From Candidatus Omnitrophota bacterium (GTDB taxonomy: Bacteria; Omnitrophota; Gorgyraeia; Zapsychrales; Fredricksoniimonadaceae), in the NCBI GenBank assembly GCA_903860135.1, contig CAIOPG010000002.1, positions 1,192 to 65,191 of the forward strand: DNA of 64,000 bases, given 5' to 3'. The position numbers were made by a program, and so were the translations under genes. Positions 12,162 to 32,474 of the stretch are shown in pieces. The notes below the pieces were generated by a model. That model was not told where the DNA came from. It did not search any database and saw nothing but the letters and a program-made list of their open reading frames with translations. How positions within the stretch are numbered: the first letter of the stretch is position 1; each line of letters begins with the position of its first letter.

Positions 12162-12263
12162 CCTTTTCCATGAATTCATATCAAAATCCTTTTTTATGCA
12201 CATTCTTCATAAAACTTTTGACACTATCTTGCCAATCATGATTAGCCCTTTTTACCCAAAAGG

Positions 12264-13273: not shown

Positions 13274-13332
13274 CCTCATGTGTCATAAGTATATCCAAAG
13301 ATCAGCAATAAGTCAATGCGGACAACCCGGCA

Positions 13333-14547: not shown

Positions 14548-14604
14548 GACGTTGTCCTCTCATCGCTTATCCCTAACAGCACGGCGGATGTTCCCGATTA
14601 CTGA

Positions 14605-15603
14605 TCAAACCCTGTACCGCCCCAGTTCCTCTTCGCGCATCGGCGTGGCCTTCAGCGTTTCAACGACGCCCTCTTCGGGCAATGTGTGAAGGATGTCGGC
14701 GGCGGTGCGGCCGTTGAGGTCCGCGTAACGGCATAGGGCCCTGATGGACAGCGCGATCTGCTCCGGCGTGAATACGCCACGGCCCAGCGCCACAGGACCG
14801 GCAACGTCAATGGTCTTAAATAAATGATCCCCGGGCTTTGCCAGGCGCAGGAGCGTGTTGTTCTGTAATTCATCGCGCCCGATCACAAGTTTGGCCGAAG
14901 GAGCCAGACGGAAATGTCGCCCTGTTTTAAGGAGCTGCATGTTGGGCATATCCACAGGGCCATGCGCCAGCAAGTCTTTCACACGACGGGAAAAACCTTC
15001 ATCTGTCAGCAGGCACCCGCCAGCGGCACAAGGATAATCGTTCAGGCCAAGCTCTTTGGCAAGGGCGATCTGTGGTTTGCGCGAACGGCCTGAGATCGCC
15101 AGCATGTGATCGCGCTTGACCCAACCCTGCTCTTCGGGGATGCTCGGCGGCAACAGCTTCGCCGACAAAGGCCGAAGCACCAATCCTTCCAGCCCGGCCT
15201 CTTTTTCGATCAGGGCGATCTGGCGCTTCAACTGGCTCATCGGGCGCTGACCAACCACTTCGCCGGTAATGATGAACCCTGCCCCGATCTCGAGCATGAT
15301 CTCTTTGGCCTTCTTGAAAAACAGGATACGGCAATCCTGGCACGGGTTCATATGAGAACCATACCCATGCTTGGGCGCCTTGAGCATCGCCAGAAAATCA
15401 TCACCGGCATTGATGCTACGGCACGGCATCCCCAGCTTGGCCGCCACCGTCTGGGCCGTATGCGCGCACCCATTGATATGCTTGTCGCACTGGCAAAACG
15501 GCGTCTTGTAATTAACCGCCAGCACATCCAGCCCCTCTTTGACCATCAACTCAGCGACCAACGTGCTATCGAGCCCGCCGGAAAGTAACAATACTGCCTT
15601 CAT
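14605..15603 (-). CDS. PP-loop ATP pyrophosphatase, ThiI-like (tRNA sulfurtransferase family) without a THUMP domain, Cys-rich
   Basis: N-terminal PP-loop LLLSGGLDSTLVA. GEVVGQRPMSQ...LVLRPL resembles the ThiI GEALGQVSSQT...LRPL block. Extra Cys motifs CQCDKHINGC, CQDC and CAAGGC suggest Fe-S or persulfide chemistry. Confidence 0.5.
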   Translation of the reverse strand: MKAVLLLSGGLDSTLVAELMVKEGLDVLAVNYKTPFCQCDKHINGCAHTAQTVAAKLGMPCRSINAGDDFLAMLKAPKHGYGSHMNPCQDCRILFFKKAKEIMLEIGAGFIITGEVVGQRPMSQLKRQIALIEKEAGLEGLVLRPLSAKLLPPSIPEEQGWVKRDHMLAISGRSRKPQIALAKELGLNDYPCAAGGCLLTDEGFSRRVKDLLAHGPVDMPNMQLLKTGRHFRLAPSAKLVIGRDELQNNTLLRLAKPGDHLFKTIDVAGPVALGRGVFTPEQIALSIRALCRYADLNGRTAADILHTLPEEGVVETLKATPMREEELGRYRV

Positions 15604-15714
15604 AGCCTATTCCTTTTCATTATCGACGAGGTTATGCCTGAAACCTGCGCTTGATAATAGGCGAAATCCAGGAAACCCACAATAACTTTCTTTCTGATCC
15701 GCAAGCATAATAAT

Positions 15715-15757
15715 ATCAAAAAAGACGGCGTTGATCCGATTTCTGGACCAACGCCGC
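15715..15757 (-). terminator. Rho-independent terminator downstream of cysK
   Basis: Minus-strand 8-bp stem CGGCGTTG/CAACGCCG with a 15-nt loop, followed by UCUUUUUUGA. Confidence 0.5.
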
Positions 15758-15809
15758 ATTCAAACTAACACATTCAATCATGCCACGCAGGCATAGTCTT
15801 CAACACGCC

Positions 15810-16745
15810 TTACGCCTTGATCTCCTGGAAAAGCCAGGTTGACAGATAGCGCTCGCCGGTGTCCGGCAGGACCACAACGATCGTCTTCCCTTTGTTTTCA
15901 GGACGCTTAGCGACTTCGAGTGCGGCCCAGGCGGCAGCACCGCTGGAAATGCCGACGAGGATACCTTCCTGTACGGCAAGTTGGCGTGCGGTGGCACCGG
16001 CATCATCGGTCTTGACCTGGATGATCTCATCGACGATCCCGGCATTAAAGATCGCCGGCACAAAGCCCGCGCCAATGCCCTGGATCTTGTGGGGCCCTGG
16101 CTTCCCGCCGGACAACACCGGGGAATCAAGGGGCTCGACGGCAATGGCCTTGAAGCCAGGCTTGCGCTTCTTGAGGACCTCTGAAATACCCGTGATGGTG
16201 CCGCCGGTTCCAACACCCGCGACCAGAATATCCACCTTGCCGTCGGTATCATTCCAGATCTCTTCAGCCGTTGTCTCACGGTGGATCTGGGGATTAGCCG
16301 GATTGGCAAACTGCTGTAATAAAACCGCATTCGGCGTCGCTGCAGCCAATTCTTCAGCTCTGCGCACCGCCCCCTTCATGCCCTCAAGTCCGGGGGTCAA
16401 TACCAACTGCGCCCCGAAGATCCCCAACAGCTGACGACGCTCGATCGACATGGTCTCGGGCATGGTCAGGATCAGTTTATACCCCTTGGCCGCCGCCACG
16501 AACGCCAGCGCAATGCCCGTATTGCCACTCGTTGGCTCGACGATCACAGAATCCTTGTTCAAGACGCCGCGCTTCTCGGCATCCTCGATCATGGCCAACC
16601 CGATACGATCCTTGACGCTCGACAAAGGATTAAACGATTCTATCTTCGCCAAGACTTCAGCGCTCGCCCCTTCGGCAATGCGGTTCAGGCGGACCAGCGG
16701 TGTCCGGCCGATCGTTTTGGTAATATCACTAAAAATAGCACCCAT
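15810..16745 (-). CDS. cysK: Cysteine synthase A (O-acetylserine sulfhydrylase)
   Basis: 311 aa. [16 protein letters not shown] with PLP-Lys, [10 protein letters not shown] and GTGGTITG motifs. Confidence 0.9.
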
Positions 16746-16782
16746 GTTGTTCTCCTTCCGATGATGTTATTGAAAATACCTG

Positions 16783-18096
<1,314 letters not shown>

Positions 18097-18143
18097 TTAG
18101 CTTTTTAATCCTACCATTATCCCACTTGCCCATAAAACATTCC

Positions 18144-18347
18144 CTAGATCCCGCCACCATCCTGGACTATCCACACCTCGTCAAAACGGCTCTTCTTAGA
18201 AATTTCCATCTGCACGATCCTGGCATTATGCACCGTGATCGTTACCGTTCCATAATTAAGCCCGTGGATCGAATCACTGATATCTTTGATGATCGCGTCA
18301 TTAACAATACTTTTGTTCACCGGCTGAGTCGCCATTTTATTCTCCAT
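18144..18347 (-). CDS. YezD/DUF2292-family small protein (commonly linked to sulfur-assimilation genes)
   Basis: GTVTITVHNARIVQMEISKKSRF matches the YezD core. It sits immediately upstream of metY-cysK on the same strand. The true start may be the internal MATQ. Confidence 0.55.
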   Translation of the reverse strand: MENKMATQPVNKSIVNDAIIKDISDSIHGLNYGTVTITVHNARIVQMEISKKSRFDEVWIVQDGGGI

Positions 18348-18392
18348 TGCCGTGTCGCCATCTAATTCCCACTAACCCTATCGGGATTATGG

Positions 18393-18421
18393 AAATATAC
18401 CATGCCATACGCTTTTGTCAA
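18393..18421 (-). promoter_or_regulatory. Putative sigma70-type promoter for yezD-metY-cysK
   Basis: Minus-strand TTGACA-17 nt-TATATT about 45 nt upstream of the yezD start. No S-box or SAM riboswitch was recognisable. Confidence 0.3.
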
Positions 18422-18581
18422 GGAAATTCTTACGCACCGCCAGCATCCCCCTCCGTATCTTTCACCTTCCTGGTATTCACCCGCGCCGGGCGTGACTTGT
18501 CGTGCACCTTGGCTTTGGGGTTGATCAACCATACCTTGCGGCACTTGCGCATCACTTCGCGAGACCTGCTAGTAGATGGTT

Positions 18582-19628
18582 TCATAACGACCTCTGCGCC
18601 CAGCGCACGACCGCGCTCCTGGAACGCGGGTTATCGTGACGCTCCTGTGCCCCGGCCCGGATCGGTTCACGGCTGATGGCCGCATACACCCCTGACACAC
18701 ACCCGGCCTCCAACGCCTGCATCACGCGGTTATCTTCACCGGAATGAAATGTCAAAATAGCCGCCTTACCGCCGGGCTTAAGGCAGAACGGCAAATGCCT
18801 CAGGAATTGCTCGAGCACCTGAAATTCATCGTTAACAGCAATGCGCAGGGCCTGAAATGTCCTGCGGACCGAACGGGTATTTTCCTCTTCCGCAGCGTCA
18901 GTCGACGGCCGGGGCAATGCGCGCCGCACCGCCGCACACAGGGCTGTTGTGGTCAGGATCGGCTGGCGGCATTTAAACACCGCCTTGGCGATCCCCTTGG
19001 CCTGCGGCTCATCCGCATGGGCGATGAGGATTTGCTCGAAATCTTTTTCGGATAATGACTGAAGAAGGGCTGCTGCCGATTGCCCGCGCCCGGGATTCAG
19101 CCGCAGGTCCAGCGGGCCTTCATGCTTGAAAGTAAACCCGCGTGCCGGATCATCCAACTGCATCGACGACACCCCCAGGTCCGCGAGGATCAGGTCAAAC
19201 CCCTGCCCCGCCTCCGCCGCAAGCCTGGACACCCCGGCAAAATTCATGCACCGCGCCTTGAATACCTCTTCCCCATACCCCAGTGCCGTCAGGCGCGCCA
19301 CGGTACGTTTGATCTCGACAGGATCCGCATCGATCCCCCACAGGCAACCGCCGGGGATAATGCGTGCCAGGATCTCGCGGGCATGCCCGCCATAGCCCAG
19401 CGTCGCATCGAGCACCACCTGACCCGGCCGCGGATCAAGGATCGCCAGGATCTCCGCCACACACACCGAACGGTGCGTACCCGCCAGGGTTTTCCCGCCA
19501 AGGACGATCTTTGACGCCTCTTCCGCATAACGCGCCGCGTCATGCTCTTTGTATTTCTCGTCAAACCTGCGCGGATGCTTCCCCGCATACCGCGCCCGGC
19601 GCTGAGGCAAAAGAGGATCAACTGACAT
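18582..19628 (-). CDS. rsmH: 16S rRNA (cytosine1402-N4)-methyltransferase RsmH (MraW)
   Basis: VCVAEILAILDPRPGQVVLDATLGYGGHAREIL...GIDADPVEI matches the RsmH SAM-binding core. It has an N-terminal extension of about 40 aa and is not followed by ftsL/ftsI. Confidence 0.8.
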   Translation of the reverse strand: MSVDPLLPQRRARYAGKHPRRFDEKYKEHDAARYAEEASKIVLGGKTLAGTHRSVCVAEILAILDPRPGQVVLDATLGYGGHAREILARIIPGGCLWGIDADPVEIKRTVARLTALGYGEEVFKARCMNFAGVSRLAAEAGQGFDLILADLGVSSMQLDDPARGFTFKHEGPLDLRLNPGRGQSAAALLQSLSEKDFEQILIAHADEPQAKGIAKAVFKCRQPILTTTALCAAVRRALPRPSTDAAEEENTRSVRRTFQALRIAVNDEFQVLEQFLRHLPFCLKPGGKAAILTFHSGEDNRVMQALEAGCVSGVYAAISREPIRAGAQERHDNPRSRSAVVRWAQRSL

Positions 19629-19709
19629 TATTTCCTATCCCCCGCTGTTTCCAGATAAAATAATTTACTCTGATTAGCATACCACTAATATATAGTTTAT
19701 ACTTCGAGC

Positions 19710-22700
19710 ATGCATCGAAATTCTATTTTAACCCGCATCTATGCCATGATCACGGTATTTGCCTTTGGGGTGAATATGATCGGTCCCCTCTATGCGCAAT
19801 CCGGCCCATCATTCCTGCCGGACCCGGGGCATATGATCGCGTTAAGCCGCCCGTTTAATCCCTTGCTCCTCAAAGGGCTCAAGGTTTACCCGGACAATCC
19901 TTTCCGGTTTGAATTCATCCTCAATCCGGGCGATGCCAGCCTGGCAGGCCAGCCCCTGAAAGAAGCATCGGCACGCCTCATCAAATATTTCCTTGCCAGC
20001 CTCACGATCCCTGAAAAAGACCTTTGGGTTAACCTGTCTCCGTACGAAAAAAACCGCATCGTCCCCGAAACTTTCGGGCAAACCGAAATGGGGCGCGACT
20101 TGCTGGCGCAGGATTATCTCCTGAAACAGATAACCGCCTCGGCCATTTATCCGGAAAGCGACCTTGGCCAGCAATTCTGGCATAAAGTCTATGCCCAGGC
20201 ACAGCAAAAATACGGCACAACAGATATCCCGATCGACACCTTCAATAAAGTCTGGATCGTCCCCGCCAAAGCGGCCCTGTACGAAAATGCCGCCGCCGGC
20301 ACAGCCTACATAACGGGATCAAGTCTCAAGGTCATGCTGGAATCAGATTATAAGGCGATCACAGAGAATGAGTCATTCGCACGTAGGGGCGGGTCCGTGA
20401 CCCGCCCTCTTTTATCGGATACGCCAACACCTCAAGGCGTCGACCGCATGTCATCCGATATCGCCAAGAACGTCCTCCGCGAGTTCATCATCCCCGCGCT
20501 CGAGAAAGAAGTGAATACAGGAGAAAACTTTGCCCAACTGCGGCAGATCTATCAAGCCCTGATCCTGGCTACATGGTACAAACAAAAAGTAAAAAATTCT
20601 CTCCTGTCACGCGTTTATGTTGACCGGCATAAAATTACAGGCGTCCGTATCCCTGACCCCCGGGAATCCGAGAAAATCTGGAGCCGTTACGTCGAGGCAT
20701 TCCAACAGGGCGTGTTTAACTATATCCAGGAAACCCGGGATCCGGCAACAATGGAAACGATCCCCAGAAAATTCTTCGCCGGCGGGGTTGACGCGTCCGC
20801 CATCTCCACCATCATCGATGCCAGCGGATCGATCGCGCCTTCAGATGCCGCAGGGAACAACACCACGTTAAGCATTTTATTGGTTAAAACCAAGGATAAT
20901 GCCAGTCATGAACAGCAGGCACAATCTCTTTATGAAAGCATATGGCCGTCCCTCGTGCCCTGGGAAAAACTGCCGGCCATCAGCCAGAAAGTTTTTGAAT
21001 GGAGCCGGGGGAAGAACGATTGGGAACAATTATTAAAACTCCGATATTTCCATCCCAGATCATTTCTCCTGAGCCACCTCCCTGCTCTTGCAAGTTTTTT
21101 GGGATCACAACAGGATTGGATTAATCTCTATCCTTTTATAAAACACATTGCCTCTTTCGATGAACACAACCAGGATGTCTTATACAATAAAACACTGCCA
21201 GCCCTCTACGCTTGCTTCAAGGATCGCTTGCCGATCGAACAGATCCTTGTTATTGCCGGCTTATTAAAAAACGAAATCCCCTCTCAAGAGATTGAAGTAT
21301 TCATCAACACGTTCATGAAGCCTCATCTTGAAACAACACCCCTGAGCGTAGAAGATTTTATCGCTGAATCAAACCGACTTTTAGAATGGAACCAGTACCG
21401 GAGTATAAACAATTTTTATCCATTTATAGGAAGTGCCCTGTCCAAGGATGATATAACACCATTGCTGGCATCATCCCAAATATCAGAACCTGACAAATTC
21501 AAGCTGTTGACCGGTTTTTGCGTCACGCATCCTGAAGCGGCCGCCCAGGATATGTTGACATATTTCAATCAATTCAAGTCCGGGATCACTTTATCCCAGG
21601 CCTCCTGGCTTATACTTGCTTTCGGGAAAATAAAGACACCTGTCATATTGCCCTATATGATAAATCTCTGGAATAAATCCGATGACGACAATGACTATGA
21701 GAACGGCAAAATAATATTCTTATCAACCATAAAATATTGGCCCAGGAACCTTATTACTGCTCTCCTAAAGTCAGACGACATTCCGCCTTCCTTCGCTCTA
21801 GAGATGATGGCTACCGAGGCAGATAAACAATCTTTACAAGATGCCCCCAACGATCTTTGCCGCACCCTCTTTAAAATATCTTCTTATCAAGAGATCATCA
21901 AAAGCCTCAGAATACTTAATAGAATACCTGACGCCCTCATCTTAACCCCCTTGATAGATCGCCTTTTTCAATCGATGACCACGAGCATCCAGTTGTCTCT
22001 AGACCATGGCATCGGTGCAGAAGGATCAACAATTAACATTGCTAATTTGAAATCCATCGGCACTTTCCTGCACTTTTTCATCACCAACGCCCCTAACCTC
22101 GCCTATAATTGCAAATCATCCCTGACCCGCCTGATCCGCCGATTGCCTATAGGTAACCGGCAGATCAAGCGCGTGAAGGATATTGCTGACCAGCTGGTGG
22201 ACGCCGTCGGGGGCCGACGGCTTATCCTTGAGGGGGGGGCACATTTTATCGTAGACCTGCGCGACGAGATTCATAAGCACATCAACTTTCTGACCGTGTT
22301 CAAGGTCAAAGCCTACGCCCATTATCTATCGACAGGCGATCAAACCATGCTCCGAGCCATGGAAGTCACGATCGATGACGAAGCTCCATTCAGCAAGCTG
22401 TCCCTAATGCAAACTAATCGCATAACAAATGTAGAAACCATCCTCAACGAGCTTATAGAGAAAATGAATATCATTTTTAACGGCGGTGGGACAAATTCCA
22501 AAGAAGTAATCGTTAACTACAATCTTTCCATCCATCCCCTTAACATCGCATTACGGAACAGCTTTGATGCTGTATTGACCACATCCGAAACCCTCGACAC
22601 TCTTCTGTCCCAACCGTTAAACAACGACAGCCTTGTTGAAGGCTTGCGACTCATGACGCAACTGAAAGAATCCCTCGCCACCTTAAGAGCAGATGAACGC

Positions 22701-24845
22701 TACCGGGATGAACAACTGTTATTCCTCCTGCTCGACGTTGAACTCGAGACCTACCTTTATCGCCTGCTGGCCAAAATACCGCCGGAACAAGAGATGACGA
22801 TCCCCACCCTGCTGGCCATTCTTCATCCGGTCATCGGCCTGGCCCGGGAGAGTTTCAATATTCAAGCACAGGAAGAACTGGGCGTGATCAGCGATGAATT
22901 ACGGCAGATCATCGACGCTGAAAAAACCCCGGGGTCAACCGTCAACGGCTCTCCCCTGCGTGTATTTGCCATTGTCGAGCGCCTCCTGCGGCGGATCCGG
23001 CAGTTCAGCCAGGAAACCAGCGCGGTCTACCAGCCTATCGTCAACGACCAAACCCGAGGCCAAAATATCTTCGAAAAGGAAAAAATTGATGACGTTACGG
23101 CTGATCTTATCCGCGTGGAAAATCCTTATCAGCTTTCGCTGGTCGCGCAACAGCTCGAAGCTGTCCTTGCCCGGGAACTTCACCTGTCCTGGCTGGTGGC
23201 TCGTCCGGGAACAGGCCAGGGGCAGTTGATCCATGTGAAAGAATCTGACAATCTCCAGCAGGTGATCGACCAGTTGACCCAACCTGCCATCCTGATCGCG
23301 GAACGTATCCCGAATAATATCCTGCTAAACCCCTATGTCCGCGGCTATGTGACGCGCGAAGAACAGGGGGTCCTGTCGCATCCCGCCATACGTTCCGACA
23401 ACAATGCGCCGGTGGTCCTTGTCCAGGCGATCGGCAGTAAATACACGGAACTGATCGCCACAGCCGAGGCATCGCCGGATGCATTCTTCCAGATAACCGC
23501 CGCCGATAACGAGGTTGCTATCAACAAGATTGATACACTTGATCCAATGACGACCACCGCCCCCCAGGCCGCTATCCCCGTCGAGGCTGATCTCAGCATC
23601 AGGGGTCTGATCACTGATATTAATGCCTATACGCCGGAAACTGTCGGCAACAAAGGCTACAGCTTAAAACGCTTGCACGATGCCATCGAACGCCTGAAAG
23701 CCGCTGGTCTGATTCCCCAGAACTTCATTCTTTCGGTCCCCCAGAGCATTGCCTTGCCCTTTGGCTATTTTGAAGCGATCCTCGATGCCAATGGCGCCAT
23801 GGGCCAGCAGATCCGTACCTTACGGGAGCAGTTGAAGGCTCCCCCCGATGAGAATGACACCAAAGGCATCCTGATCCAGCTTGAACAACTGATCCTGCAA
23901 CTTGATATCGATCCCGAAATGATTGACACGATCGCTCACATCATCGGTGCTTCCATGGTGCGGTTGTGCCCCACGGTCGATGATCTTTCCAGGAATGCCG
24001 CCGCCGGTGTCTATGGCTCATTTGAACACGTGGCACGCGCTCAATTGGGCGACCATATCCGACGTGGCTACGCATCGTTATACACCCTCACGGCCTTCAT
24101 GGACAGGCGCCAGCATCAGATAGAGGAAGATAACGTTCACGCCGCGATGATTTTCCAGATCATGGCAACAGGCAATGCTTTTGTGGCTTTCAGCCAGGAC
24201 CCTACCCTTCAAAATGAAACGGATCGGCGGAACGCCATGCTGTTGGAAATGATCCCCGGGCTGGGCAAGACGCTCATGTCCGGCGAACCCGAATTCCAGG
24301 GATCCCCCCACCGCTTCAGATACTCCGTCAGCGCAGGCAATGCCCAGCGCCTGGCGTATGCCAACAAGAGCTACCGCCTTGTCGTCGACGCTGGGGTCTT
24401 GCAGGTGCGTTTGAATGATTACCGGCAGGATCCTTTAAGCCAGGAAGAAAATCCTTCATGGATCAAGGATCTGTTTGCGCTTCTTCGGGATATAACGGGC
24501 GATGCGACCATCGGCCGTGATATGGAAGGCTCCGTTGAGTTCAAAGACGGGATCTACTATGTGTTTCTACTGCAGGACCGTGACAATATAAAGTTCAATA
24601 CGACCAATACCGCCGGACAAACCGGAAAAGACGCCAAACGCTCCACCGCCAACCCGGAATATACAGGCGGTATTGACCTAAGGGCCCCGGCGTTAACACT
24701 CAACAAGAGCACCGTGCATTTTCAGTTTTCCCCCGATCAACTCGCCGCCTTCGAAAGCGCCCCCGGCCTGCGCCCCGTGATCCTCAAAGCCAGCCCGATC
24801 AAGGATCTGAAACTCTTCTTATCAACCCCCGCTGTTTCCAGATGA
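19710..24845 (+). CDS. Giant exported multidomain protein 1 (1711 aa): conserved N-terminal domain of unknown function, AT-rich variable core, PEP-utilizer phosphohistidine domain plus PPDK_N-type nucleotide-binding domain, conserved C-terminal tail
   Basis: Single uninterrupted ORF. Predicted signal peptide ...MIGPLYA|QS. The N-terminal ~330 aa are ~55-60% identical to the N-terminus of ORF 43155..47735. The C-terminal TGGIDL...APGLRPVI...DLKLFL tail is shared with that ORF. Confidence 0.8.
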   Translation: MHRNSILTRIYAMITVFAFGVNMIGPLYAQSGPSFLPDPGHMIALSRPFNPLLLKGLKVYPDNPFRFEFILNPGDASLAGQPLKEASARLIKYFLASLTIPEKDLWVNLSPYEKNRIVPETFGQTEMGRDLLAQDYLLKQITASAIYPESDLGQQFWHKVYAQAQQKYGTTDIPIDTFNKVWIVPAKAALYENAAAGTAYITGSSLKVMLESDYKAITENESFARRGGSVTRPLLSDTPTPQGVDRMSSDIAKNVLREFIIPALEKEVNTGENFAQLRQIYQALILATWYKQKVKNSLLSRVYVDRHKITGVRIPDPRESEKIWSRYVEAFQQGVFNYIQETRDPATMETIPRKFFAGGVDASAISTIIDASGSIAPSDAAGNNTTLSILLVKTKDNASHEQQAQSLYESIWPSLVPWEKLPAISQKVFEWSRGKNDWEQLLKLRYFHPRSFLLSHLPALASFLGSQQDWINLYPFIKHIASFDEHNQDVLYNKTLPALYACFKDRLPIEQILVIAGLLKNEIPSQEIEVFINTFMKPHLETTPLSVEDFIAESNRLLEWNQYRSINNFYPFIGSALSKDDITPLLASSQISEPDKFKLLTGFCVTHPEAAAQDMLTYFNQFKSGITLSQASWLILAFGKIKTPVILPYMINLWNKSDDDNDYENGKIIFLSTIKYWPRNLITALLKSDDIPPSFALEMMATEADKQSLQDAPNDLCRTLFKISSYQEIIKSLRILNRIPDALILTPLIDRLFQSMTTSIQLSLDHGIGAEGSTINIANLKSIGTFLHFFITNAPNLAYNCKSSLTRLIRRLPIGNRQIKRVKDIADQLVDAVGGRRLILEGGAHFIVDLRDEIHKHINFLTVFKVKAYAHYLSTGDQTMLRAMEVTIDDEAPFSKLSLMQTNRITNVETILNELIEKMNIIFNGGGTNSKEVIVNYNLSIHPLNIALRNSFDAVLTTSETLDTLLSQPLNNDSLVEGLRLMTQLKESLATLRADERYRDEQLLFLLLDVELETYLYRLLAKIPPEQEMTIPTLLAILHPVIGLARESFNIQAQEELGVISDELRQIIDAEKTPGSTVNGSPLRVFAIVERLLRRIRQFSQETSAVYQPIVNDQTRGQNIFEKEKIDDVTADLIRVENPYQLSLVAQQLEAVLARELHLSWLVARPGTGQGQLIHVKESDNLQQVIDQLTQPAILIAERIPNNILLNPYVRGYVTREEQGVLSHPAIRSDNNAPVVLVQAIGSKYTELIATAEASPDAFFQITAADNEVAINKIDTLDPMTTTAPQAAIPVEADLSIRGLITDINAYTPETVGNKGYSLKRLHDAIERLKAAGLIPQNFILSVPQSIALPFGYFEAILDANGAMGQQIRTLREQLKAPPDENDTKGILIQLEQLILQLDIDPEMIDTIAHIIGASMVRLCPTVDDLSRNAAAGVYGSFEHVARAQLGDHIRRGYASLYTLTAFMDRRQHQIEEDNVHAAMIFQIMATGNAFVAFSQDPTLQNETDRRNAMLLEMIPGLGKTLMSGEPEFQGSPHRFRYSVSAGNAQRLAYANKSYRLVVDAGVLQVRLNDYRQDPLSQEENPSWIKDLFALLRDITGDATIGRDMEGSVEFKDGIYYVFLLQDRDNIKFNTTNTAGQTGKDAKRSTANPEYTGGIDLRAPALTLNKSTVHFQFSPDQLAAFESAPGLRPVILKASPIKDLKLFLSTPAVSR
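23290..23520 (+). other. PEP-utilizing-enzyme mobile (phosphohistidine) domain within giant protein 1
   Basis: VARPGTGQGQLIHV...PAILIAERIPNNILLNPYVRGYVTREEQGVLSHPAIRSDNNAPVVLV aligns to the consensus G.VTe.GG.TSHAAI.ARE.GIPAVVG. The predicted catalytic His is in LSHPAI. Confidence 0.7.
23620..24580 (+). other. PPDK_N / PEP-synthase-type ATP(nucleotide)-binding domain within giant protein 1
   Basis: ETVGNKGYSLKRL (cf. LGGKNASLGEM), IPQNFILS (cf. VPNGFATT), VRLCPTVDDLSRNAAAGVYGSF (cf. VRSSATAEDMPDASFAGQQETF), AFVAFSQDP...LLEMIPGLGKTLMSGE (cf. GVMFSRDP...IEAAWGLGEAVVSG). Confidence 0.75.
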
Positions 24846-27800
24846 AATAGATCACCGGATACACCAATAATTCGAGAATGAAACTGCTGAAGATCCCGCC
24901 GATCATGGGGGCGGCGATGCGTTTCATGACATCGGCGCCGGCGCCTGTGGACCACATGATGGGGACAAGGCCCATGAACATGGCGGCAACCGTCATCAGT
25001 TTCGGGCGGACACGTTTGACCGCGCCATGGACAATGGCTTCCGTTAAGTCTTCCCGGGTTTTCATTTTCCCCTGACGCACGGCATCGTCATAGGCCATAT
25101 CGAGAAAAAGGAGCATGAAGACCCCTGTTTCAGCGTCAAGCCCCATCAGCGCGATCATGCCCACCCAGACGGCGATCGACATATTGTACCCCAGCAGCCA
25201 CAACAGCCAGACAGCCCCCACCAGAGAAAACGGCACGGCCAGCATGACGATGCCAGCCTTGACCGGTGAACGGGTGTTCATATACAAAAGGATGAAAATA
25301 AGAAAGATCGTCAGCGGCAATACCACACGCATCCGCTCGCGCACGCGCAGCATATTCTCAAACTGGCCGCTCCACTGCAGGGAATACCCCGTCGGCACCT
25401 TCAACTGCGCCTCAACGGCCTTCCTGGCTTCCGCGACAAAACTGCCCACATCACGTCCGGCAATGTCCACATAAACATACCCCGCCAGCATGCCGTTCTC
25501 ATCCCGGATCATGGCCGGCCCCGTGGTAAGGTTGATCGTCGCCAGCTGTTCAAGCGGCACATGGGCACCCGAAGGCGTCGGCACGAGGACGCGGCGCAGT
25601 TGGGGCAAATCGTCGCGGAAGTCGCGGGCATAACGGACATTCACCGTATAGCGTTCCCGGCCTTCAATCGTCGTGGTCACGGTTTCCCCGCCGATCGCCG
25701 ACACAATGACATCCTCAACATCCTTGACAGACAAACCATACGGCGCCAAGGCCAGACGCTTGATATCAAAATCAATGAAATACCCGCCGGTCACGCGCTC
25801 GGCGTAAACACTGCGCGCCCCCTTGATCCCCTTGACAATACCTTCAACTGCGATCCCGACCTTCTCGATCTGCGCCAGGTCCGCGCCATAGACCTTGATC
25901 CCGACCGGCGTCCTGATGCCCGTCGATAACATGTCGATCCTGGCTTTGATGGGCATGGTCCACGCATTGGACACCCCCGGGAACTGCATCTTTTTGTCGA
26001 GGTCGGCGATCACGTCTTCCCAGGAGATCCGGTCAGGCCAGATCGCACGGAAAGGCATCTGCAGAAAACCAGGCAACGCGGAATACCAGCGCGGTACATG
26101 CCGCCATTCACTTTCTGGCTTTAAAATGATCGTTGTTTCCATCATGGAAAACGGTGCCGGGTCCGTCGATGTTTCCGCCCGTCCGGCCTTGCCGAACACA
26201 CGCTCCACTTCAGGCACCGTTTTGATCACCTTGTCCATCTGCTGTAACAGCTCCCCCGCCCCGGTCACGGACAAACCCGGCAAGGTGGTCGGCATATAAA
26301 GGATAGCCCCTTCATTGAGCGGCGGCATGAACTCCGACCCCAGGCGCATGAAAACCGGGATCGTCGACAGCACTAGGATGCCCGCCGCGATCAAGGTCTG
26401 TTTCCGGTACTTCAGGACAAAACGGCATACCGGTTCATAATACTTGAAAAGCACCCGGCTGACAGGATGCTTTTCTTCCGCATAATATTTCCCGACAAAA
26501 AGGCTATTGAACGCCGCAGATATCCAGACAGGCTTAAAACAAATCGGATCAAGGCGCGTGAAAAACATCCGCATCGCCGGATTGAGCGTTACAGCGAGGA
26601 TCGCGGCTATGGCCATGGCAAAATTCTTGCTGAACGCCAGCGGCCTAAAAAGCCGCCCTTCCTGATCGAGCAAGGTGAACACAGGCAAAAACGCCACCGC
26701 GATCACCAGCAGTGAAAAAAATACCGACGGCCCAACCTCTTTCAGGGCCTTAAGGAGGACATCACGGTAATCCCCCTGACGCCCCCCCGCATCCCACAAT
26801 TGAAGTTTCTTGTACGCATTCTCGACTTCGATGATAGCGCCATCAACGAGCACCCCGATCGAGATCGCGATCCCGGCCAGCGACATGATATTGGATGTCA
26901 GTTTCATCATGAGCATCGGGATAAAACTGAGGAGCACCGCGATGGGGATCGTGATAATGGGAACACTGGCTGAAGGGAAATGCCACAGGAAGAAAATGAT
27001 GACCAGCGCCACAATGATCATTTCCTCGATCAACTGATGCTTGAGCGTATCAATGGCGCGATGGATCAGATCCGAACGGTCATACGTCGTCACCAGCTCA
27101 ACGCCCGGCGGCAGGGACGCCTTGACGTCCTTCAACTTTTCTTTAACCCGCTCAATGACATTCAGGGCATTTTCGCCTGAACGCATGAGCACAATGCCGC
27201 CCACGGTATCGCCTTCCCCATCCAGATCAGCGATCCCCCGCCGCATCTCCGGGCCGATCACCACCGACGCCACATTTTTAACAAGGATCGGCGTCCCCTG
27301 GGCATCATTGCCGATCACAATATCCTCAATATCCTTGACCGACTTGATATATCCCCGCCCGCGCACCATATACTCTGTGCCCGCCAGCTCAATGAGGCGC
27401 CCCCCCACATCGTTATTGCTGTTACGGACCGCATCAATGACACGCGTGAGCGGCATATTGTACGCCAAGAGCGCGTTAGGCTTCACGTTCACCTGATACT
27501 GCTTCTGAAACCCGCCCACCGACGCCACCTCGGCCACCCCCGGCACCGCCTGCAGCCAGTACCGCAGATACCAATCCTGGAACGAACGCAACTGCGCGAG
27601 GTCATTCTTCCCCGACTTATCGACGAGCGCATATTGATACACCCAGCCCACAGATGTCGCGTCAGGGCCGATCTCTGTCTTGACACCTTCGGGCAATCGC
27701 GGCAGTACCTTGTTCAGGTACTCGAGCGTCCGGCTGCGTGCCCAATAAATATCCGTGCCATCCTTGAAAATAATATAAACAAAAGAATAGCCGAAGTCCG

Positions 27801-28053
27801 AGAAGCCACGGATCGATTTCACATCCGGCGCCCCCAGGAGGGCCGTCACAACAGGATAGGTGACCTGATCCTCAATGATATCCGGCGAGCGATCCCAGCG
27901 GGAATAAACAATGACCTGCGTATCCGAAAGATCCGGGATAGCATCGAGCGGAATATTCCTGATACTGTACACAGCCCCCAATATAGCCGCCAGCGTCAGG
28001 ATCATGACGATATATTTATTTTTCGCCGAGAATTCTATGATTTTCTCGATCAT
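24799..28053 (-). CDS. cusA: Heavy-metal efflux RND pump, CusA/CzcA family
   Basis: 1084 aa, 12-TM RND. MIEKIIEFSAKNKYIVMILTLAAILG...IPLDAIPDLSDTQVIVYSRW... matches the CusA N-terminus. Its 3' end overlaps the 3' end of giant gene 1 (convergent). Confidence 0.9.
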   Translation of the reverse strand: MIEKIIEFSAKNKYIVMILTLAAILGAVYSIRNIPLDAIPDLSDTQVIVYSRWDRSPDIIEDQVTYPVVTALLGAPDVKSIRGFSDFGYSFVYIIFKDGTDIYWARSRTLEYLNKVLPRLPEGVKTEIGPDATSVGWVYQYALVDKSGKNDLAQLRSFQDWYLRYWLQAVPGVAEVASVGGFQKQYQVNVKPNALLAYNMPLTRVIDAVRNSNNDVGGRLIELAGTEYMVRGRGYIKSVKDIEDIVIGNDAQGTPILVKNVASVVIGPEMRRGIADLDGEGDTVGGIVLMRSGENALNVIERVKEKLKDVKASLPPGVELVTTYDRSDLIHRAIDTLKHQLIEEMIIVALVIIFFLWHFPSASVPIITIPIAVLLSFIPMLMMKLTSNIMSLAGIAISIGVLVDGAIIEVENAYKKLQLWDAGGRQGDYRDVLLKALKEVGPSVFFSLLVIAVAFLPVFTLLDQEGRLFRPLAFSKNFAMAIAAILAVTLNPAMRMFFTRLDPICFKPVWISAAFNSLFVGKYYAEEKHPVSRVLFKYYEPVCRFVLKYRKQTLIAAGILVLSTIPVFMRLGSEFMPPLNEGAILYMPTTLPGLSVTGAGELLQQMDKVIKTVPEVERVFGKAGRAETSTDPAPFSMMETTIILKPESEWRHVPRWYSALPGFLQMPFRAIWPDRISWEDVIADLDKKMQFPGVSNAWTMPIKARIDMLSTGIRTPVGIKVYGADLAQIEKVGIAVEGIVKGIKGARSVYAERVTGGYFIDFDIKRLALAPYGLSVKDVEDVIVSAIGGETVTTTIEGRERYTVNVRYARDFRDDLPQLRRVLVPTPSGAHVPLEQLATINLTTGPAMIRDENGMLAGYVYVDIAGRDVGSFVAEARKAVEAQLKVPTGYSLQWSGQFENMLRVRERMRVVLPLTIFLIFILLYMNTRSPVKAGIVMLAVPFSLVGAVWLLWLLGYNMSIAVWVGMIALMGLDAETGVFMLLFLDMAYDDAVRQGKMKTREDLTEAIVHGAVKRVRPKLMTVAAMFMGLVPIMWSTGAGADVMKRIAAPMIGGIFSSFILELLVYPVIYFIWKQRGLIRRVSDP

Positions 28054-28154
28054 AAAATATTACTCCAAAATATATTATCGATCCAAAAGAACATCCTACA
28101 CTTCACTCTTTATATACAAGTACGCATTAGAAGCTGTAAGCATGCCTCGGCTAA

Positions 28155-29024
28155 CTACATGGCATTCTTTAATTTACTCTCAGCATCGATCAGGAAATTG
28201 CCGCTTGTGGCAACTTCCTCGCCTTCTTCCAAGCCGGACACCACGGCATAAAATTCGCCGGCCCTGGGACCCAGGGTCACTGCCCGTGCCACAAAACGAT
28301 TGTCCTTCACAACATAAACGATCTTGCGCAGGCCCGAATCCATGACCGCCTCCGCCGGGACTGACAGTTTCTCACCGAGGTCGATCATGATCTTGGCGTT
28401 AACAAACATATCCGGCTTAAGCTTGCCCTTCTTGTCTTCCACATCCACCTTCACACGCATGGTGCGGCTTTGCGCATTGATGACAGGCCGTAAGGCGGCC
28501 ACCTTGCCCTTGAACACTTCTCCCGGATAAGCCACCGCATCAACCAGGACATCCTGCCCCTTGCGTACAAGCCCCAGCTCATATTCATACACCGCCATAT
28601 AGATCGACGTCCGACCGGCATTCCGCCACCGCGGCGAAGGCGTACCTATTTCCTTCAGATAATCAACCTGACCGGCAGCAAGATCCGGGTCATACGCCAC
28701 CTTGCCTGTCGTCACGATCTCCACCGCCAGCTTCTGGCGTGTTACCCGGCTCTTTTTTACCCCGATCAATTGCTGTCGGTCAGTATTGATCGCAACCCCA
28801 GCCGTCGGCTTATCGGAGGCATTAGGCTCCGCCTCTTTCTTCACCAGATCCATCCCGCAAATAGGGCATGACCCCTTGTGATCAGCGATGATCTGCGGAT
28901 GCATGGGGCACACATAAACCGCCTTCACCGCCTGCTGATCCGCCTTGTCCATGGCGAAGCCCTGCGACAGGGTCCCGCCACTGAACATTAAAACTAATAA
29001 CACATACAATAATCTTATATTCAT
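28155..29024 (-). CDS. cusB: RND efflux periplasmic adaptor (CusB-like) with N-terminal heavy-metal-binding domain
   Basis: Signal peptide. YVCPMHPQIIADHKGSCPICGMDLV is the HMBD/YHS-like motif of CusB-type adaptors. Membrane-fusion-protein beta-barrel and lipoyl-domain pattern. Confidence 0.8.
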   Translation of the reverse strand: MNIRLLYVLLVLMFSGGTLSQGFAMDKADQQAVKAVYVCPMHPQIIADHKGSCPICGMDLVKKEAEPNASDKPTAGVAINTDRQQLIGVKKSRVTRQKLAVEIVTTGKVAYDPDLAAGQVDYLKEIGTPSPRWRNAGRTSIYMAVYEYELGLVRKGQDVLVDAVAYPGEVFKGKVAALRPVINAQSRTMRVKVDVEDKKGKLKPDMFVNAKIMIDLGEKLSVPAEAVMDSGLRKIVYVVKDNRFVARAVTLGPRAGEFYAVVSGLEEGEEVATSGNFLIDAESKLKNAM

Positions 29025-29037
29025 AATCTCTCCTGGC

Positions 29038-29343
29038 TTAGCGCCCCATCGGCATATCTTTCATGGCCTTTTGGCTCGCTTCAACTTCCTGTGCCGCGAT
29101 CTTGCTGTACTTTTCGGGATCCGCCTTGAAACGCCCGATACACCCGCCGCAACAAAGGTTGTAACGTTTTCCTTTATACTCAAACGTCGCCGGCTCCATC
29201 CCTGAGGCCGGATTGATCTTCGCCCCGGATACAGGGCATACGGTATTCTCGACATTAACAACTTTTTCCGCCGCCCTCACGGACCCGCCTGCCAACAGCG
29301 CAACCCCTGCCAATATACCCAGCATAAGAATGATCGTTTTCAT
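29038..29343 (-). CDS. Secreted YHS-domain (copper-binding) protein
   Basis: Signal peptide. CPVSGAKI...FEYKGKRYNLCCGGCIGRFKADPEKY matches the YHS/TRASH pattern. Confidence 0.6.
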   Translation of the reverse strand: MKTIILMLGILAGVALLAGGSVRAAEKVVNVENTVCPVSGAKINPASGMEPATFEYKGKRYNLCCGGCIGRFKADPEKYSKIAAQEVEASQKAMKDMPMGR

Positions 29344-29458
29344 ACAGCCTCCATTTTCTCTATTTTTATGTCATCTGATTATCTCACAAAAAGACGCCCC
29401 GTCAGCATATCTTTCGCGAACAAAAGACAGCCCGGCAACACCGTGTATCAATGCAGGA

Positions 29459-29848
29459 TTATAAAAGGAGAGTGTGATACTGAAGATAAAACGGAAGAGC
29501 ATGCCTTGACCCTGGAGGCGCACCGCCATAAGCCGTGCTCAACCGGGCCACTTGAAACAACGGGTCAACACCAACAAGCACCGCATCCAAAGCCGAGCCA
29601 TGTGCCAAGAACACTACTGTTGCCGCACCAACCGCTTCGATCTCGGCAATACCGAATTTCTTGAACGAACACGTGCAGGGTTTGGCATCTTTTTCATCCG
29701 ATGCCTTGTCGCCATGACAGCACGATGCTGCGGCCGATCGCTTGACCGCGTGCGCCTGCGCCAGCTTTTCGATACAGCAACAAAACACCGCCGAAGCACC
29801 AACCGCGGCGATCAAGAAGACCACGATATAAGTTTTAAGGGATTTCAT
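29459..29848 (-). CDS. Small membrane-anchored Cys-rich protein (putative metal-binding), hypothetical
   Basis: N-terminal TM helix followed by CCC, CCH and CTC clusters. It lies inside the cus cluster. Coding status is uncertain. Confidence 0.3.
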   Translation of the reverse strand: MKSLKTYIVVFLIAAVGASAVFCCCIEKLAQAHAVKRSAAASCCHGDKASDEKDAKPCTCSFKKFGIAEIEAVGAATVVFLAHGSALDAVLVGVDPLFQVARLSTAYGGAPPGSRHALPFYLQYHTLLL

Positions 29849-29971
29849 CATACGCCACAACCTTGCCGAGGGTTCAATCGCTATCTCTTCATTAAGGTTA
29901 GCACACCCGCCTGCGGCACATCAAGAGAATTCCATATCCCCGCGCGACATAACATTTACAGAGAGTACCTA

Positions 29972-30493
29972 TCATTGGATCGCTTCACAATTGATATACT
30001 GCCCCTTCATGAGCTTCTGCACATCATACAAACGGTTGATCTTATCGATGATCGCATAAGCCTCACAGGTCGGGTGTTTCTTAAAGCTCACAGAGACGCC
30101 GTACTTTACAGGTGCTGCCCGGGAAGCCACTTCCTCTTGAGCCTGTTCAAGTGAACTACGCGTATCAACACGCAAAAGCTGTTTGAATTGCTCAAGCCGT
30201 GCCTTAATGCTTGCCGGAAAAACATCGGGAACCATCACCTCATCCTGCCTCGCCAGTGCCCAGGTGCACTGATTCACCGCATTAACAGGATCTTCGCGGC
30301 CCTTACCGTCAACGGTCGCGTTCCAACACACGCTATGCCCCTCACATTCAATTGCTTTCTCAAACATCAACAGGGCGTTGCGTTGTTCCTTAACAGATAC
30401 GCCGGCCTTCAGAATAGACTGCCGATCCCAGCCATCCACGCAAGCCCTCAAAAAGATCACGGCAACCAGCACCCCAACGATCATGATCCAGCG
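29972..30493 (-). CDS. Hypothetical membrane-anchored protein
   Basis: ORF with an N-terminal hydrophobic segment MRWIMIVGVLVAVIFL. No recognisable domain. Confidence 0.3.
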   Translation of the reverse strand, partial: RWIMIVGVLVAVIFLRACVDGWDRQSILKAGVSVKEQRNALLMFEKAIECEGHSVCWNATVDGKGREDPVNAVNQCTWALARQDEVMVPDVFPASIKARLEQFKQLLRVDTRSSLEQAQEEVASRAAPVKYGVSVSFKKHPTCEAYAIIDKINRLYDVQKLMKGQYINCEAIQ

Positions 30494-30865
30494 CATACAT
30501 ACCCTTTCAGTGGCACGGTGTCCAACGATGCCGTTACTCCCTAAGTTACTGCAGGCATGCCGGGTGAACACCTTCTTTCCCCATCAAAATATTTTCTGAT
30601 CCTGCTCTGCTTGAAACAGGCCTCTCTAGTCCATAAACTCAATATTCGCCGAAAGCTGAGCGTTTATCAACAATATTCTTTAGATGTTAAAGTATGTTGT
30701 TGGAAGTAGTCATTAAGGAATTTAGAAAAATTATTCAACTCAGTCAGCCCATCTATCTGAAACCCTCCACAGCCTAACGAGTAACATTGTTCAATGAGTC
30801 AATGGATATTTTATGGGAGGCCGGCGGGGAAGATAACGGCATATGCGGGTAAATCGTGTTCTTTG

Positions 30866-31261
30866 TTACACGCTCCAGTCTTGCCAATGAAGTCCCGGGA
30901 TACGGGAAAATTCTTTTATATTATGTGTAATCAGCGTGCCCCGGCGTGAAATCACGGTGGCGGCGATCATGAGGTCGTTGGAACCAATCGGCTTCCCTTT
31001 CTTTTCCAACGCCATGCGTAAATCACCGTAAATCTCCGCAGCTGGGGCATCAAAAGGAATCACCTCAAAGGGCAGCATAAAGAACGCCACCGCTTTATGG
31101 GCCGACACCGTTGCCGCCTTGCAGGCTCCAAAAGAAAGTTCAGCCAGGACCACTGCCGGGATCTTGATCAACCCGTGAGGTGTCTGTTTCATCTGTTCCA
31201 GCGCAGGCGCAGAAGACCCCCGCAAGATAAAAACACAGGTATCCGTATCCAGGAAGAACAT
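30866..31261 (-). CDS. vapC: Type II toxin VapC (PIN-domain ribonuclease)
   Basis: MFFLDTDTCVFIL... with conserved acidic residues (D6, E..., D near C-terminus SNDLMIAATVI). PIN fold. Overlaps the antitoxin stop. Confidence 0.8.
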   Translation of the reverse strand: MFFLDTDTCVFILRGSSAPALEQMKQTPHGLIKIPAVVLAELSFGACKAATVSAHKAVAFFMLPFEVIPFDAPAAEIYGDLRMALEKKGKPIGSNDLMIAATVISRRGTLITHNIKEFSRIPGLHWQDWSV

Positions 31262-31494
31262 TACAGCACGCTCCTTTTACAATCCAGCGAAGAGCTTAAA
31301 TCCGGGGGGATGTCGATCCCTTTACAGGGACTCTTTTGCAAAAATTCAAAATAACCCGGAGGCCATCCCTTTTCTTCCAAAGATGCGGTCAACCGCTGCT
31401 TGACCCAGCGTGAAATGGAAGCTTTTTCCTGACGCGCCGAACGCTCGATCCGCAACAATGTCGCATCATCAATATAAATAGTTAGTTGTGCCAT
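31261..31494 (-). CDS. VapB-type antitoxin (ribbon-helix-helix-like)
   Basis: MAQLTIYIDDATLLRIERSARQEKASISRWVKQRL... is about 77 aa with its stop overlapping the vapC ATG. The ORF-track start at 31593 is probably too far upstream. Confidence 0.5.
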   Translation of the reverse strand: MAQLTIYIDDATLLRIERSARQEKASISRWVKQRLTASLEEKGWPPGYFEFLQKSPCKGIDIPPDLSSSLDCKRSVL

Positions 31495-31571
31495 AAGCAC
31501 CTCTCTTTCAGAATGAGCATAGCAGAAATATGCTCGGCTTTCAAATATATGTGGACATATATGTGTCAGCG

Positions 31572-32468
31572 CTACGGATGGTGTCGCAAGCATTGCGCTA
31601 TGGCACGCTTGGCGGTGCGGGAAAGGTTGAAGGCTGTCAGGACCGCGTCGATCTTTCCTGGCGGGAGGCCGTGCACCAGCGCGGCCAGGCGTTCTTCGCG
31701 GGCAGCGCCGCAGCGGACAAGGAGCGCCCGGTCTTCAGCTTCATAAGAAATATACCGCACCGCGCCCCACAAAGATAAAAGATCGAGTGCAGGAGCCGGG
31801 TCTTTCTCATCGAGGATACGCCCCAGCTCCAGGAAATAACGGACCGGCGTGATGGTGGTCATGGCCCCCGCGCCCACAGCCGCCTCGAGCGCTTCCTGGG
31901 TCAGGGCATCCAGCTGAAATCCGAAACGGGCGGCATACCGAGCGGCACGCAGGATACGGGTCGGGTCATCGCGAAAACTTTCCGGATAAGTCGTACGGAT
32001 CAGGCGGGCCTCAAGATCCGTAAGGCCCTCAAGGTCATCACGGACAACTCCCCGGTTATCCGCATTGAGCCCGCAGGCCAAAGCATTGACCGTAAAATCC
32101 CGCCGAAAAAGATCATCGTCCATGGTCCCAGGGACAATATCAGGCAGAGCGCCGGGCCGCGCATAAGACTCACGGCGCGCGGTCACAAGGTCGAGCGACA
32201 ATCCATCCTTAAATGTCAATACCGCTGTCCTGAACGGGGTATGCACCCTGACAGCCGCCGACAGCTGTCCCGCCAGGCGGCGGGCAAACGCAGGGGCATC
32301 CCCTTCAAGGACAATATCAATGTCCGACACCGGCACCCCCAGCAGGAGGTCGCGAACAACCCCGCCGACGATAAAAATACGCACACCCGCCTTATCGGCC
32401 TCAGCACCGATATGCTGTAAAAGCTCCCGGACATGGGGCGCAAGCGGCGCAAGGTCAAGGCGTTGCAT
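31572..32468 (-). CDS. tRNA nucleotidyltransferase/poly(A) polymerase family protein (short, 298 aa)
   Basis: IFIVGGVVRDLLLGVPVSDIDIVLEGD is the pol-beta nucleotidyltransferase head, followed by RRDFTVNAL. It is shorter than typical CCA-adding enzymes, so possibly a CC- or A-adding half-enzyme. Confidence 0.6.
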   Translation of the reverse strand: MQRLDLAPLAPHVRELLQHIGAEADKAGVRIFIVGGVVRDLLLGVPVSDIDIVLEGDAPAFARRLAGQLSAAVRVHTPFRTAVLTFKDGLSLDLVTARRESYARPGALPDIVPGTMDDDLFRRDFTVNALACGLNADNRGVVRDDLEGLTDLEARLIRTTYPESFRDDPTRILRAARYAARFGFQLDALTQEALEAAVGAGAMTTITPVRYFLELGRILDEKDPAPALDLLSLWGAVRYISYEAEDRALLVRCGAAREERLAALVHGLPPGKIDAVLTAFNLSRTAKRAIAQCLRHHP

Positions 32469-32474
32469 AATAAA

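Follow-up and report, generated by a model that had tools for sequence, protein, structure and literature searches.

A predicted glucan, water dikinase-type core carried as cargo by a putatively exported giant protein of Candidatus Omnitrophota

We analysed a stretch of 64,000 nucleotides from a Candidatus Omnitrophota bacterium (contig CAIOPG010000002.1; the window), in which one gene encodes a protein of 1711 residues that we call giant protein 1. At a probability of roughly 60%, we favour a reading in which this protein is exported by the Sec pathway, carries as cargo a complete catalytic core of the type found in α-glucan, water dikinase (GWD1, EC 2.7.9.4) and phosphoglucan, water dikinase (PWD, EC 2.7.9.5), and acts in or at another cell on a predicted acceptor that is a carbohydrate polymer. 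The confidence that the module is a full GWD/PWD-type core is high, judged from sequence comparisons. A preliminary description of the window, made from the letters alone, had placed a dikinase-type phosphotransfer module near the C-terminus of the protein, at 23290–24580. The module itself is upheld by the analyses below, as are all six sequence motifs quoted for it, each at its original place (Table 1). The interval had been given for the phosphohistidine and nucleotide-binding domains; the homologous unit is larger, since similarity to GWD extends ∼ 400 residues further upstream, from residue ∼ 780.

The identity of the ATP-grasp domain is secure. The Pfam model PF01326 (PPDK_N) matches residues 1310–1627 with 61.9 bits (E = 8.5e-17; cutoff 27), and a sequence search of the PDB with giant protein 1 returned the ATP-binding part of Listeria rifampin phosphotransferase (RPH) as its best matches. 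We modelled residues 1006–1660 with AlphaFold (predicted local distance difference test score, pLDDT, 72; predicted template-modelling score, pTM, 0.75) and compared the model with the PDB using Foldseek. It aligned with RPH (5hv1, E = 1e-15) over ∼ 340 columns, confined to the ATP-grasp domain, and the isolated ATP-binding domain of RPH (5hv6_B) gave a target template-modelling score of 0.79. HpeI, phosphoenolpyruvate (PEP) synthase and pyruvate phosphate dikinase (PPDK) were matched as well, with D-Ala-D-Ala ligases ranking behind them.

The phosphohistidine domain was identified through its homologues. In giant protein 1, PF22973 (GWD1_pHisD) matches residues 1160–1247 with 18.9 bits (E = 0.0011; cutoff 27) and PF00391 gives no match even at E ≤ 1. 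Four of the five aligned Omnitrophota homologues exceed both cutoffs (32–43 bits for PF22973, 26–35 bits for PF00391), and the fifth (P0007) passes PF00391 and falls just short for PF22973 (24.7 bits). Without exception, the 150 aligned relatives have His1224; 134 of them also have L1222 and 140 have S1223. His1224 lies in an LSH motif and corresponds to the catalytic His of GWD (His992 in the potato enzyme); the region around it pairs with VLSHVAVRAR of algal GWD1 in an hhalign comparison. Because the homologues pass the models and His1224 is invariant in the alignment, we assign the domain at the level of the family. The preliminary description had looked to PF01326 and PF00391 and to a catalytic His in a proper alignment; the first model and the His were found, the second model was not. 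Its reference to 'Walker-like residues' was a small error, as to our knowledge a Walker motif is not part of ATP-grasp domains.

The module extends upstream of the His domain into a helical region. Residues ∼ 781–1155 are conserved with dikinase-bearing Omnitrophota paralogues and, from residue ∼ 980–1080 onwards, also with Planctomycetota PWD-like proteins and algal GWD1. With giant protein 1 alone as query, phmmer aligned the Omnitrophota paralogues over residues ∼ 780–1705 and P0150, a shorter PWD-like relative of the Planctomycetota type without a TIM barrel, over residues 979–1621 (E = 6e-37). Alignments to Planctomycetota-type relatives begin at residues 979–1008, and algal GWD1 matches residues 1082–1381 (E = 8.6e-14). 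From 1.84 billion cluster representatives, a profile built from nine Omnitrophota modules (629 positions) recovered 20,236 at E ≤ 1e-3, of which 1269 reached E ≤ 1e-30; many cover all 629 positions. The set of 1269 includes proteins with the architecture AP_endonuc_2 + GWD1_pHisD + PPDK_N, one of which carries the JGI name 'phosphoglucan, water dikinase'. Comparison of the module-family profile with algal GWD1 (Ig_N_CWD1 + DUF7067 + GWD1_pHisD + PPDK_N; the cluster holds a Picocystis sequence) by hhalign gave a probability of 100% and E = 1.6e-42 over 556 columns, spanning GWD1 residue 806 to the C-terminus and including residues 806–950, which lie ahead of the GWD1 His domain.

Giant protein 1 thus has the domain order of GWD and PWD (helical core, His domain, ATP-grasp domain), and the PEP/pyruvate-binding TIM barrel (PF02896) was not detected in it by Pfam. 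Both points agree with the preliminary description, which had assigned the order to the glucan, water dikinases rather than to PEP synthase or PPDK; the order now rests on the Pfam positions, the PF22973 match (sub-threshold in giant protein 1, above threshold in homologues) and the hhalign result. With the plant and algal enzymes giant protein 1 shares the helical core, the LSH His domain as identified through the homologues, the C-terminal ATP-grasp domain and the lack of a TIM barrel. It differs from them in being bacterial, in its predicted signal peptide, in the conserved end domains ('bookends') described below and in several near-invariant residues that are changed. Among 117 relatives with both motifs, RSSxNxEDL stands ahead of GLGE in 102, as it does in giant protein 1, which we take to be the PWD arrangement; in the other 15, GWD1-type proteins, the RSDSNGEDL-type motif is displaced to behind GLGE. 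No experimental structure of a GWD or PWD exists, according to a 2026 review (PMC12892837).

The closest bacterial comparison is with Planctomycetota PWD-like proteins (∼ 1175–1200 residues, e.g. MBF0197474.1), which come from another PVC-group lineage and share the same catalytic core including its helical part. Their N-terminal partner is a xylose-isomerase-like TIM barrel (AP_endonuc_2), whereas giant protein 1 has a bookend and a lineage-specific region in that place; the bookends were absent from the Planctomycetota-type representatives checked by motif search. The fusion of the AP_endonuc_2 barrel to a complete GWD/PWD core defines an uncharacterised bacterial family of considerable size, observed in Planctomycetota, to which P0162, P0164, P0178, P0185 and P0216, all outside the window, belong.

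Table 1. Positions of giant protein 1, its parts and the second family member in the window.
Feature	Residues	Nucleotides	Strand	Basis or remarks
Giant protein 1 gene, intact open reading frame	1–1711	19710..24845	+	1711 residues plus stop
Signal-peptide-like N-terminus	1–30	19710..19799	+	Hydropathy scan, family pattern
N-terminal bookend domain	∼ 35–365	19812..20804	+	Common to thousands of Omnitrophota proteins
Middle region, lineage-specific	∼ 366–780	20805..22049	+	G+C 0.47
Helical part of GWD/PWD-type core	∼ 781–1155	22050..23174	+	phmmer ranges, alignment, AlphaFold2 helices, hhalign to GWD1
Phosphohistidine swivel domain	∼ 1160–1270	23187..23519	+	PF22973 sub-threshold, homologues, invariant His
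Motif GYVTREEQGVLSHPAIRSDNNAPVVLV	1212–1238	23343–23423		Quoted in preliminary description
Catalytic His codon	1224	23379–23381	+	Motif GVLSHPAIR
ATP-grasp nucleotide-binding domain (PPDK_N)	1310–1627	23637..24590	+	PF01326, PDB sequence matches to RPH, Foldseek, column statistics
Motif ETVGNKGYSLKRL	1310–1322			Quoted in preliminary description
Motif IPQNFILS	1335–1342			Quoted in preliminary description
Motif VRLCPTVDDL...GSF	1417–1438			Quoted in preliminary description
Motif AFVAFSQDP	1490–1498			Quoted in preliminary description
Motif LEMIPGLGKTLMSGE	1512–1526			Quoted in preliminary description
Substituted positions	S1419L, S1420C, N1422T, E1424D, G1431A, W1454Y, W1458Y, R1461T, E1520K, Q1603R, R1230D, Q1626N			Conserved in relatives
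C-terminal bookend tail	∼ 1652–1711	24663..24842	+	TGGIDL...FQFSPDQL...APGLRPVILKASP...LKLFL
Second bookend member		43155..47735	-	Listed open reading frame 1526 residues; likely true start Met30 at nt 47648

Comparisons of the two ends of the protein place giant protein 1 in a large Omnitrophota-specific family with conserved termini and swappable cargo. A full-length search gave 3946 significant proteins among 8000 candidates scored. The top 120 share just the first ∼ 20–23% of giant protein 1, at 50–60% identity; 119 relatives align to residues 28–400 with about 50–70% identity, and every top-120 relative that bears a source name is from Candidatus Omnitrophota. The N-terminal bookend carries the motif LPxPG...LWVNLSPYEKDRIVP...FGQTEMGRDLLAQDY. 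The C-terminal tail is present in 116 of the 120 proteins of the N-terminal-domain set, with a variant in three of the other four. Its family consensus is GGIDLT...(I/L)KFH(L)DPAML.QLQNAPGF(V)PVIINIQP(M)..L..FLG, and giant protein 1 ends in TGGIDLRAPALTLNKSTVHFQFSPDQLAAFESAPGLRPVILKASPIKDLKLFL. Neither bookend has a match in Pfam, NCBIfam or the PDB, and we found no description of the family in the literature searched. A scan of one genome per species located at least 585 family loci. Those listed are all in Omnitrophota metagenome-assembled genomes, some titled 'uncultured Planctomycetales', and many genomes are multi-copy (assembly JABDGZ01 holds 8 of the 80 listed loci). The surroundings of 80 family loci (± 3 kb) contained no recurrent partner gene; the recurrent clusters there were only the family itself and antisense-frame artefacts.

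Between the bookends, precomputed Pfam assignments show S-adenosylmethionine (SAM) methyltransferases, SNF2 helicases, M48 peptidases with ABC1 kinases, GNAT acetyltransferases and CheY receivers in the relatives, and further HATPase, PLD, phosphoribosyltransferase, MutS-like ATPase and HTH domains, and tetratricopeptide repeats (TPR) plus ATP-grasp. The window itself contains a second member. Its signal peptide ends in …FFPLAYA↓E, its N-terminal domain shares 56% identity with the one in giant protein 1, and a GGIDL tail is present; its cargo of ∼ 1100 residues has no Pfam match at all. In giant protein 1 the region between the N-terminal bookend and the dikinase core has no detectable homology apart from the ortholog P0002 (51% identity). 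The dikinase-bearing Omnitrophota proteins P0003, P0004 and P0129 carry long HEAT/ARM repeat arrays in this place, and one of them is named 'sister chromatid cohesion protein PDS5' by NCBI; residues 366–780 of giant protein 1 have no detectable similarity to these arrays. A LINES_C Pfam match (E = 0.16) was dismissed as noise.

The N-terminus fits the pattern of a cleavable Sec signal peptide. A hydropathy scan found a single hydrophobic segment in giant protein 1 (residues 6–27), with the basic n-region MHRNSILTR ahead of it and PLYAQ↓S behind. The pattern is family-wide: a hydrophobic segment is present in 106 of 110 members and is preceded by K/R in 100 of 110, and sites of the signal peptidase I type (AQA↓Q, YAQ↓S, AHA↓D) lie 3–6 residues ahead of the conserved domain. 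Export, as proposed in the preliminary description, is therefore predicted for the family as well as for giant protein 1. That description had offered two explanations for a dikinase behind such a segment, an effector acting in another cell or a membrane anchor. The former is now the more plausible, because giant protein 1 belongs to a bookend family with swappable cargo.

In the mechanism that we propose, the protein would be exported by Sec and its signal peptide probably cleaved, and trafficking and delivery would depend on the bookends. In an ATP-containing compartment, the ATP-grasp domain would bind Mg-ATP, the β-phosphate would be transferred to His1224 and the γ-phosphate to water, and AMP would be released. 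The His domain would then swing to an acceptor site, probably built by the upstream helical core, where a hydroxyl group would be phosphorylated. This chemistry is what is expected from homology to GWD/PWD, PPDK and PEP synthase. The dikinase would act inside another cell or at its surface, much as AB-type exotoxins or effectors do. Our best guess for the acceptor, made with low confidence, is a hydroxyl of a glycan, either a glycogen-like polymer or a cell-envelope glycan, because the core resembles GWD/PWD over its full extent and, in the bacterial sister group, is fused to a sugar-isomerase-type barrel. Since the pyruvate/PEP barrel, CBM20 and CBM45 were not found, the acceptor is predicted not to be pyruvate and is not demonstrably starch. 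Action in another cell is suggested because the enzyme requires ATP and, like the SAM-, acetyl-CoA-, ATP- and DNA-dependent cargo of its paralogues, would find no cofactor in either periplasm or medium. The assignment of export and delivery to the bookends, and with it an effector-like role, is likewise held with low confidence.

Several observations weigh against this reading. Among the 150 best representatives of the module family, some of which are fragments, only 13 have the tail and five have both bookends. The His domain of giant protein 1 is by itself under the Pfam thresholds, and none of the starch-binding modules of GWD and PWD (CBM45, CBM20, Ig_N_CWD1) gave a Pfam match at E ≤ 1 across the whole protein. 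Neither for the middle region nor for the N-terminal domain was a fold match recognised. No glycan-metabolism gene lies near the locus, nor is there a conserved partner gene. Signal-peptide cleavage is probable, yet both cleavage and delivery to another cell are predictions, and catalysis by the bacterial members of the module family is likewise a prediction. Finally, ∼ 12 positions that are 85–98% conserved among the 150 relatives are substituted in giant protein 1 (Table 1). At the level of motifs, RSS becomes RLC, EDL becomes DDL, GLGE becomes GLGK and RAR, right behind the catalytic His, becomes RSD. The GLGE to GLGK change is a charge reversal and the RSS to RLC change adjoins the phosphate-binding Arg; ATP use or activity could be altered or lost through such substitutions.

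These changes bring up the strongest of the alternatives, a degenerate or repurposed pseudo-dikinase that keeps the fold, has lost normal ATP-dependent phosphotransfer and serves in binding or as a scaffold, or uses another nucleotide. The weak Pfam scores of the His domain (no PF00391 match, PF22973 sub-threshold) would fit such a protein, as would the ortholog P0002, which is 61% identical and, in the alignment, also lacks part of the GLGE loop. However, all the strictly invariant residues are present in giant protein 1: H1224, K1315 (GxKG), R1418, D1425, G1433, S1456, Q1483, E1513, G1517, G1519, D1604, E1606, Q1622 and R1624. By homology to PPDK and RPH, we count among them the Lys, Arg, Mg-ligand Asp/Glu and Gln/Arg that belong to the ATP-grasp site. 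Moreover, P0002 likewise retains the invariant catalytic residues and carries the same substitutions. That they are shared by two orthologs only 61% identical suggests the stable signature of a subclade, not decay, and on sequence grounds we assign the dikinase copy of giant protein 1 to a divergent subclade. Between the two orthologs the His domain is the best conserved part of the protein (76% identity), followed by the helical core and the N-terminal domain (69% each), the ATP-grasp domain (62%), the middle region (51%) and the linkers (32–60%), which is the pattern expected if purifying selection constrains the module. We therefore consider a pseudo-dikinase unlikely and favour, with moderate confidence, a protein that is predicted to be a functional but divergent dikinase.

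As a second alternative, the protein could be a phosphotransferase for small molecules (antibiotics or xenobiotics) similar to RPH; a small ligand would be bound by its helical core, and the enzyme would act in the envelope or cytoplasm of the producer. RPH is the best match of solved structure and the best match in PDB sequence searches, and RPH (PDB 5hv1, 5fbs) uses swivelling-His dikinase chemistry. RPH also has no TIM barrel and has a helical substrate domain. However, no homology to giant protein 1 extends beyond the ATP-grasp domain, to which the ∼ 340 aligned columns are confined, and the NCBIfam model NF041857 scores 40.3 bits against a cutoff of 999, on the ATP-grasp part only. The order in RPH (ATP-grasp domain, RIF-binding domain, His domain) is the opposite of that in giant protein 1, and the helical core of the latter is homologous to that of GWD. 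A function of the RPH kind is in our view improbable.

The membrane-anchor explanation supposes that the hydrophobic segment is not cleaved and that the enzyme faces the cytoplasm of its producer, where it would phosphorylate an endogenous polymer such as glycogen. It would solve the supply of ATP without invoking delivery, and the −3/−1 residues of giant protein 1 (L-Y-A↓Q) are not the textbook AxA. Against this, the K/R before the hydrophobic core in most family members and the AQA↓Q-type sites behind it indicate an orientation with the N-terminus inside and the remainder outside the cytoplasm. The segment is also short and signal-like, and there are no glycogen genes nearby. We give this explanation little chance of being correct.

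A pyruvate/PEP-interconverting enzyme (PEP synthase or PPDK), which is how West-Roberts et al. read PPDK_N, a domain that they list among the 20 most frequent in the giant proteins of Omnitrophota, is contradicted here and effectively refuted by the architecture: these enzymes have in common with giant protein 1 the PPDK_N ATP-grasp domain and a PEP-utilizers-type His domain, but in them a TIM barrel is present and the His domain lies behind the ATP-grasp domain, the His domain and upstream helices of giant protein 1 match GWD, and NCBIfam models for PEP synthase score 34–44 bits against cutoffs of 598–883.

A GWD/PWD-type dikinase carried as exported cargo remains the preferred reading. It can be extended to a phylum-wide effector platform, in which the signal peptide, the ∼ 330-residue domain and the ∼ 60-residue GGIDL tail would deliver swappable enzymes (dikinases, methyltransferases, SNF2 helicases, acetyltransferases, phospholipases D, receiver/HATPase modules) into prey or host, and the GWD-type cargo would phosphorylate a storage or envelope glycan of the host, making it degradable as GWD does for starch. 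We offer this extension tentatively and consider it rather doubtful as it stands. Omnitrophota have been portrayed as predatory or host-dependent (PMC10066038; bioRxiv 10.1101/2023.11.21.568195) and as ultra-small predators or parasites (PMC10066038; bioRxiv 10.1101/2023.11.21.568195; bioRxiv 10.64898/2026.06.07.730766). AB toxins, MARTX proteins and polymorphic toxins likewise place conserved terminal modules around variable enzymes that depend on cytosolic cofactors. AB toxins are exported by Sec ahead of delivery. The likeness to the bookend family is one of organization only: the bookends are small (∼ 330 and ∼ 60 residues) and have no sequence or fold similarity to modular exotoxins, and neither a delivery machinery nor a partner gene was found. 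An NCBIfam match to MARTX_Nterm (E = 0.15) was dismissed as noise.

Entry P0001 in NCBI and ENA is identical to giant protein 1 and sits on a metagenome scaffold of 399.5 kb. The genes near giant protein 1 have housekeeping or transport functions (rsmH, a Cys/Met pyridoxal phosphate (PLP) enzyme, cusAB-like efflux), and the neighbourhoods of giant protein 1 and P0002 have no functional theme in common. Its gene is the sole long plus-strand gene amid a run of minus-strand genes; across the window (1..64000) almost all long open reading frames lie on the minus strand, from which it stands out as a conspicuous exception. GC skew is negative in each 2-kb bin of the window. The cargo and middle parts of both bookend genes have a G+C content of 0.45–0.47, compared with about 0.52–0.57 in most other bins. 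At its 3′ end the gene overlaps tail-to-tail with a convergent cusA-like RND efflux gene (24799..28053, minus strand) by 47 nt (24799..24845), so that ∼ 15 codons at the end of the conserved C-terminal tail lie in coding sequence on both strands.

Between the two bookend genes lie, both on the minus strand, an XerC/D-type tyrosine recombinase (32475..33365; Phage_integrase plus a SAM-like N-terminal domain) and an AAA_14/DUF4143 ATPase (41303..42532). Three further minus-strand open reading frames of 327–468 residues (3749..5029, 6660..8066 and 12264..13247) stand amid transporter genes and have no Pfam match at E ≤ 1e-5.

Some bacterial relatives of the module have already been labelled PWD by automated pipelines, so that the enzyme class is not wholly new to bacteria. 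New, as far as we could find, are the GWD/PWD core in Omnitrophota, for which the literature searched held no description of GWD-type dikinases, the divergent subclade that it forms and its position as cargo between the bookends of a putatively secreted scaffold. The class is known mainly from plant and algal starch metabolism, and its structure and biochemistry could be studied on a compact version from bacteria. The AP_endonuc_2-fused bacterial GWD/PWD proteins would be easier structural targets and may have a bearing on the origin of starch phosphorylation. Should full GWD/PWD cores indeed be abundant among bacteria of the PVC group, this might inform the debated question of how starch phosphorylation arose in Archaeplastida. 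The bookend family, for its part, may represent a system of a new kind. An ATP-requiring enzyme behind a predicted signal peptide, in a scaffold that elsewhere holds other cofactor-dependent cargo, is a candidate effector-delivery architecture, and its members provide testable candidates for how the uncultured, ultra-small and supposedly predatory or parasitic Omnitrophota may manipulate other cells.

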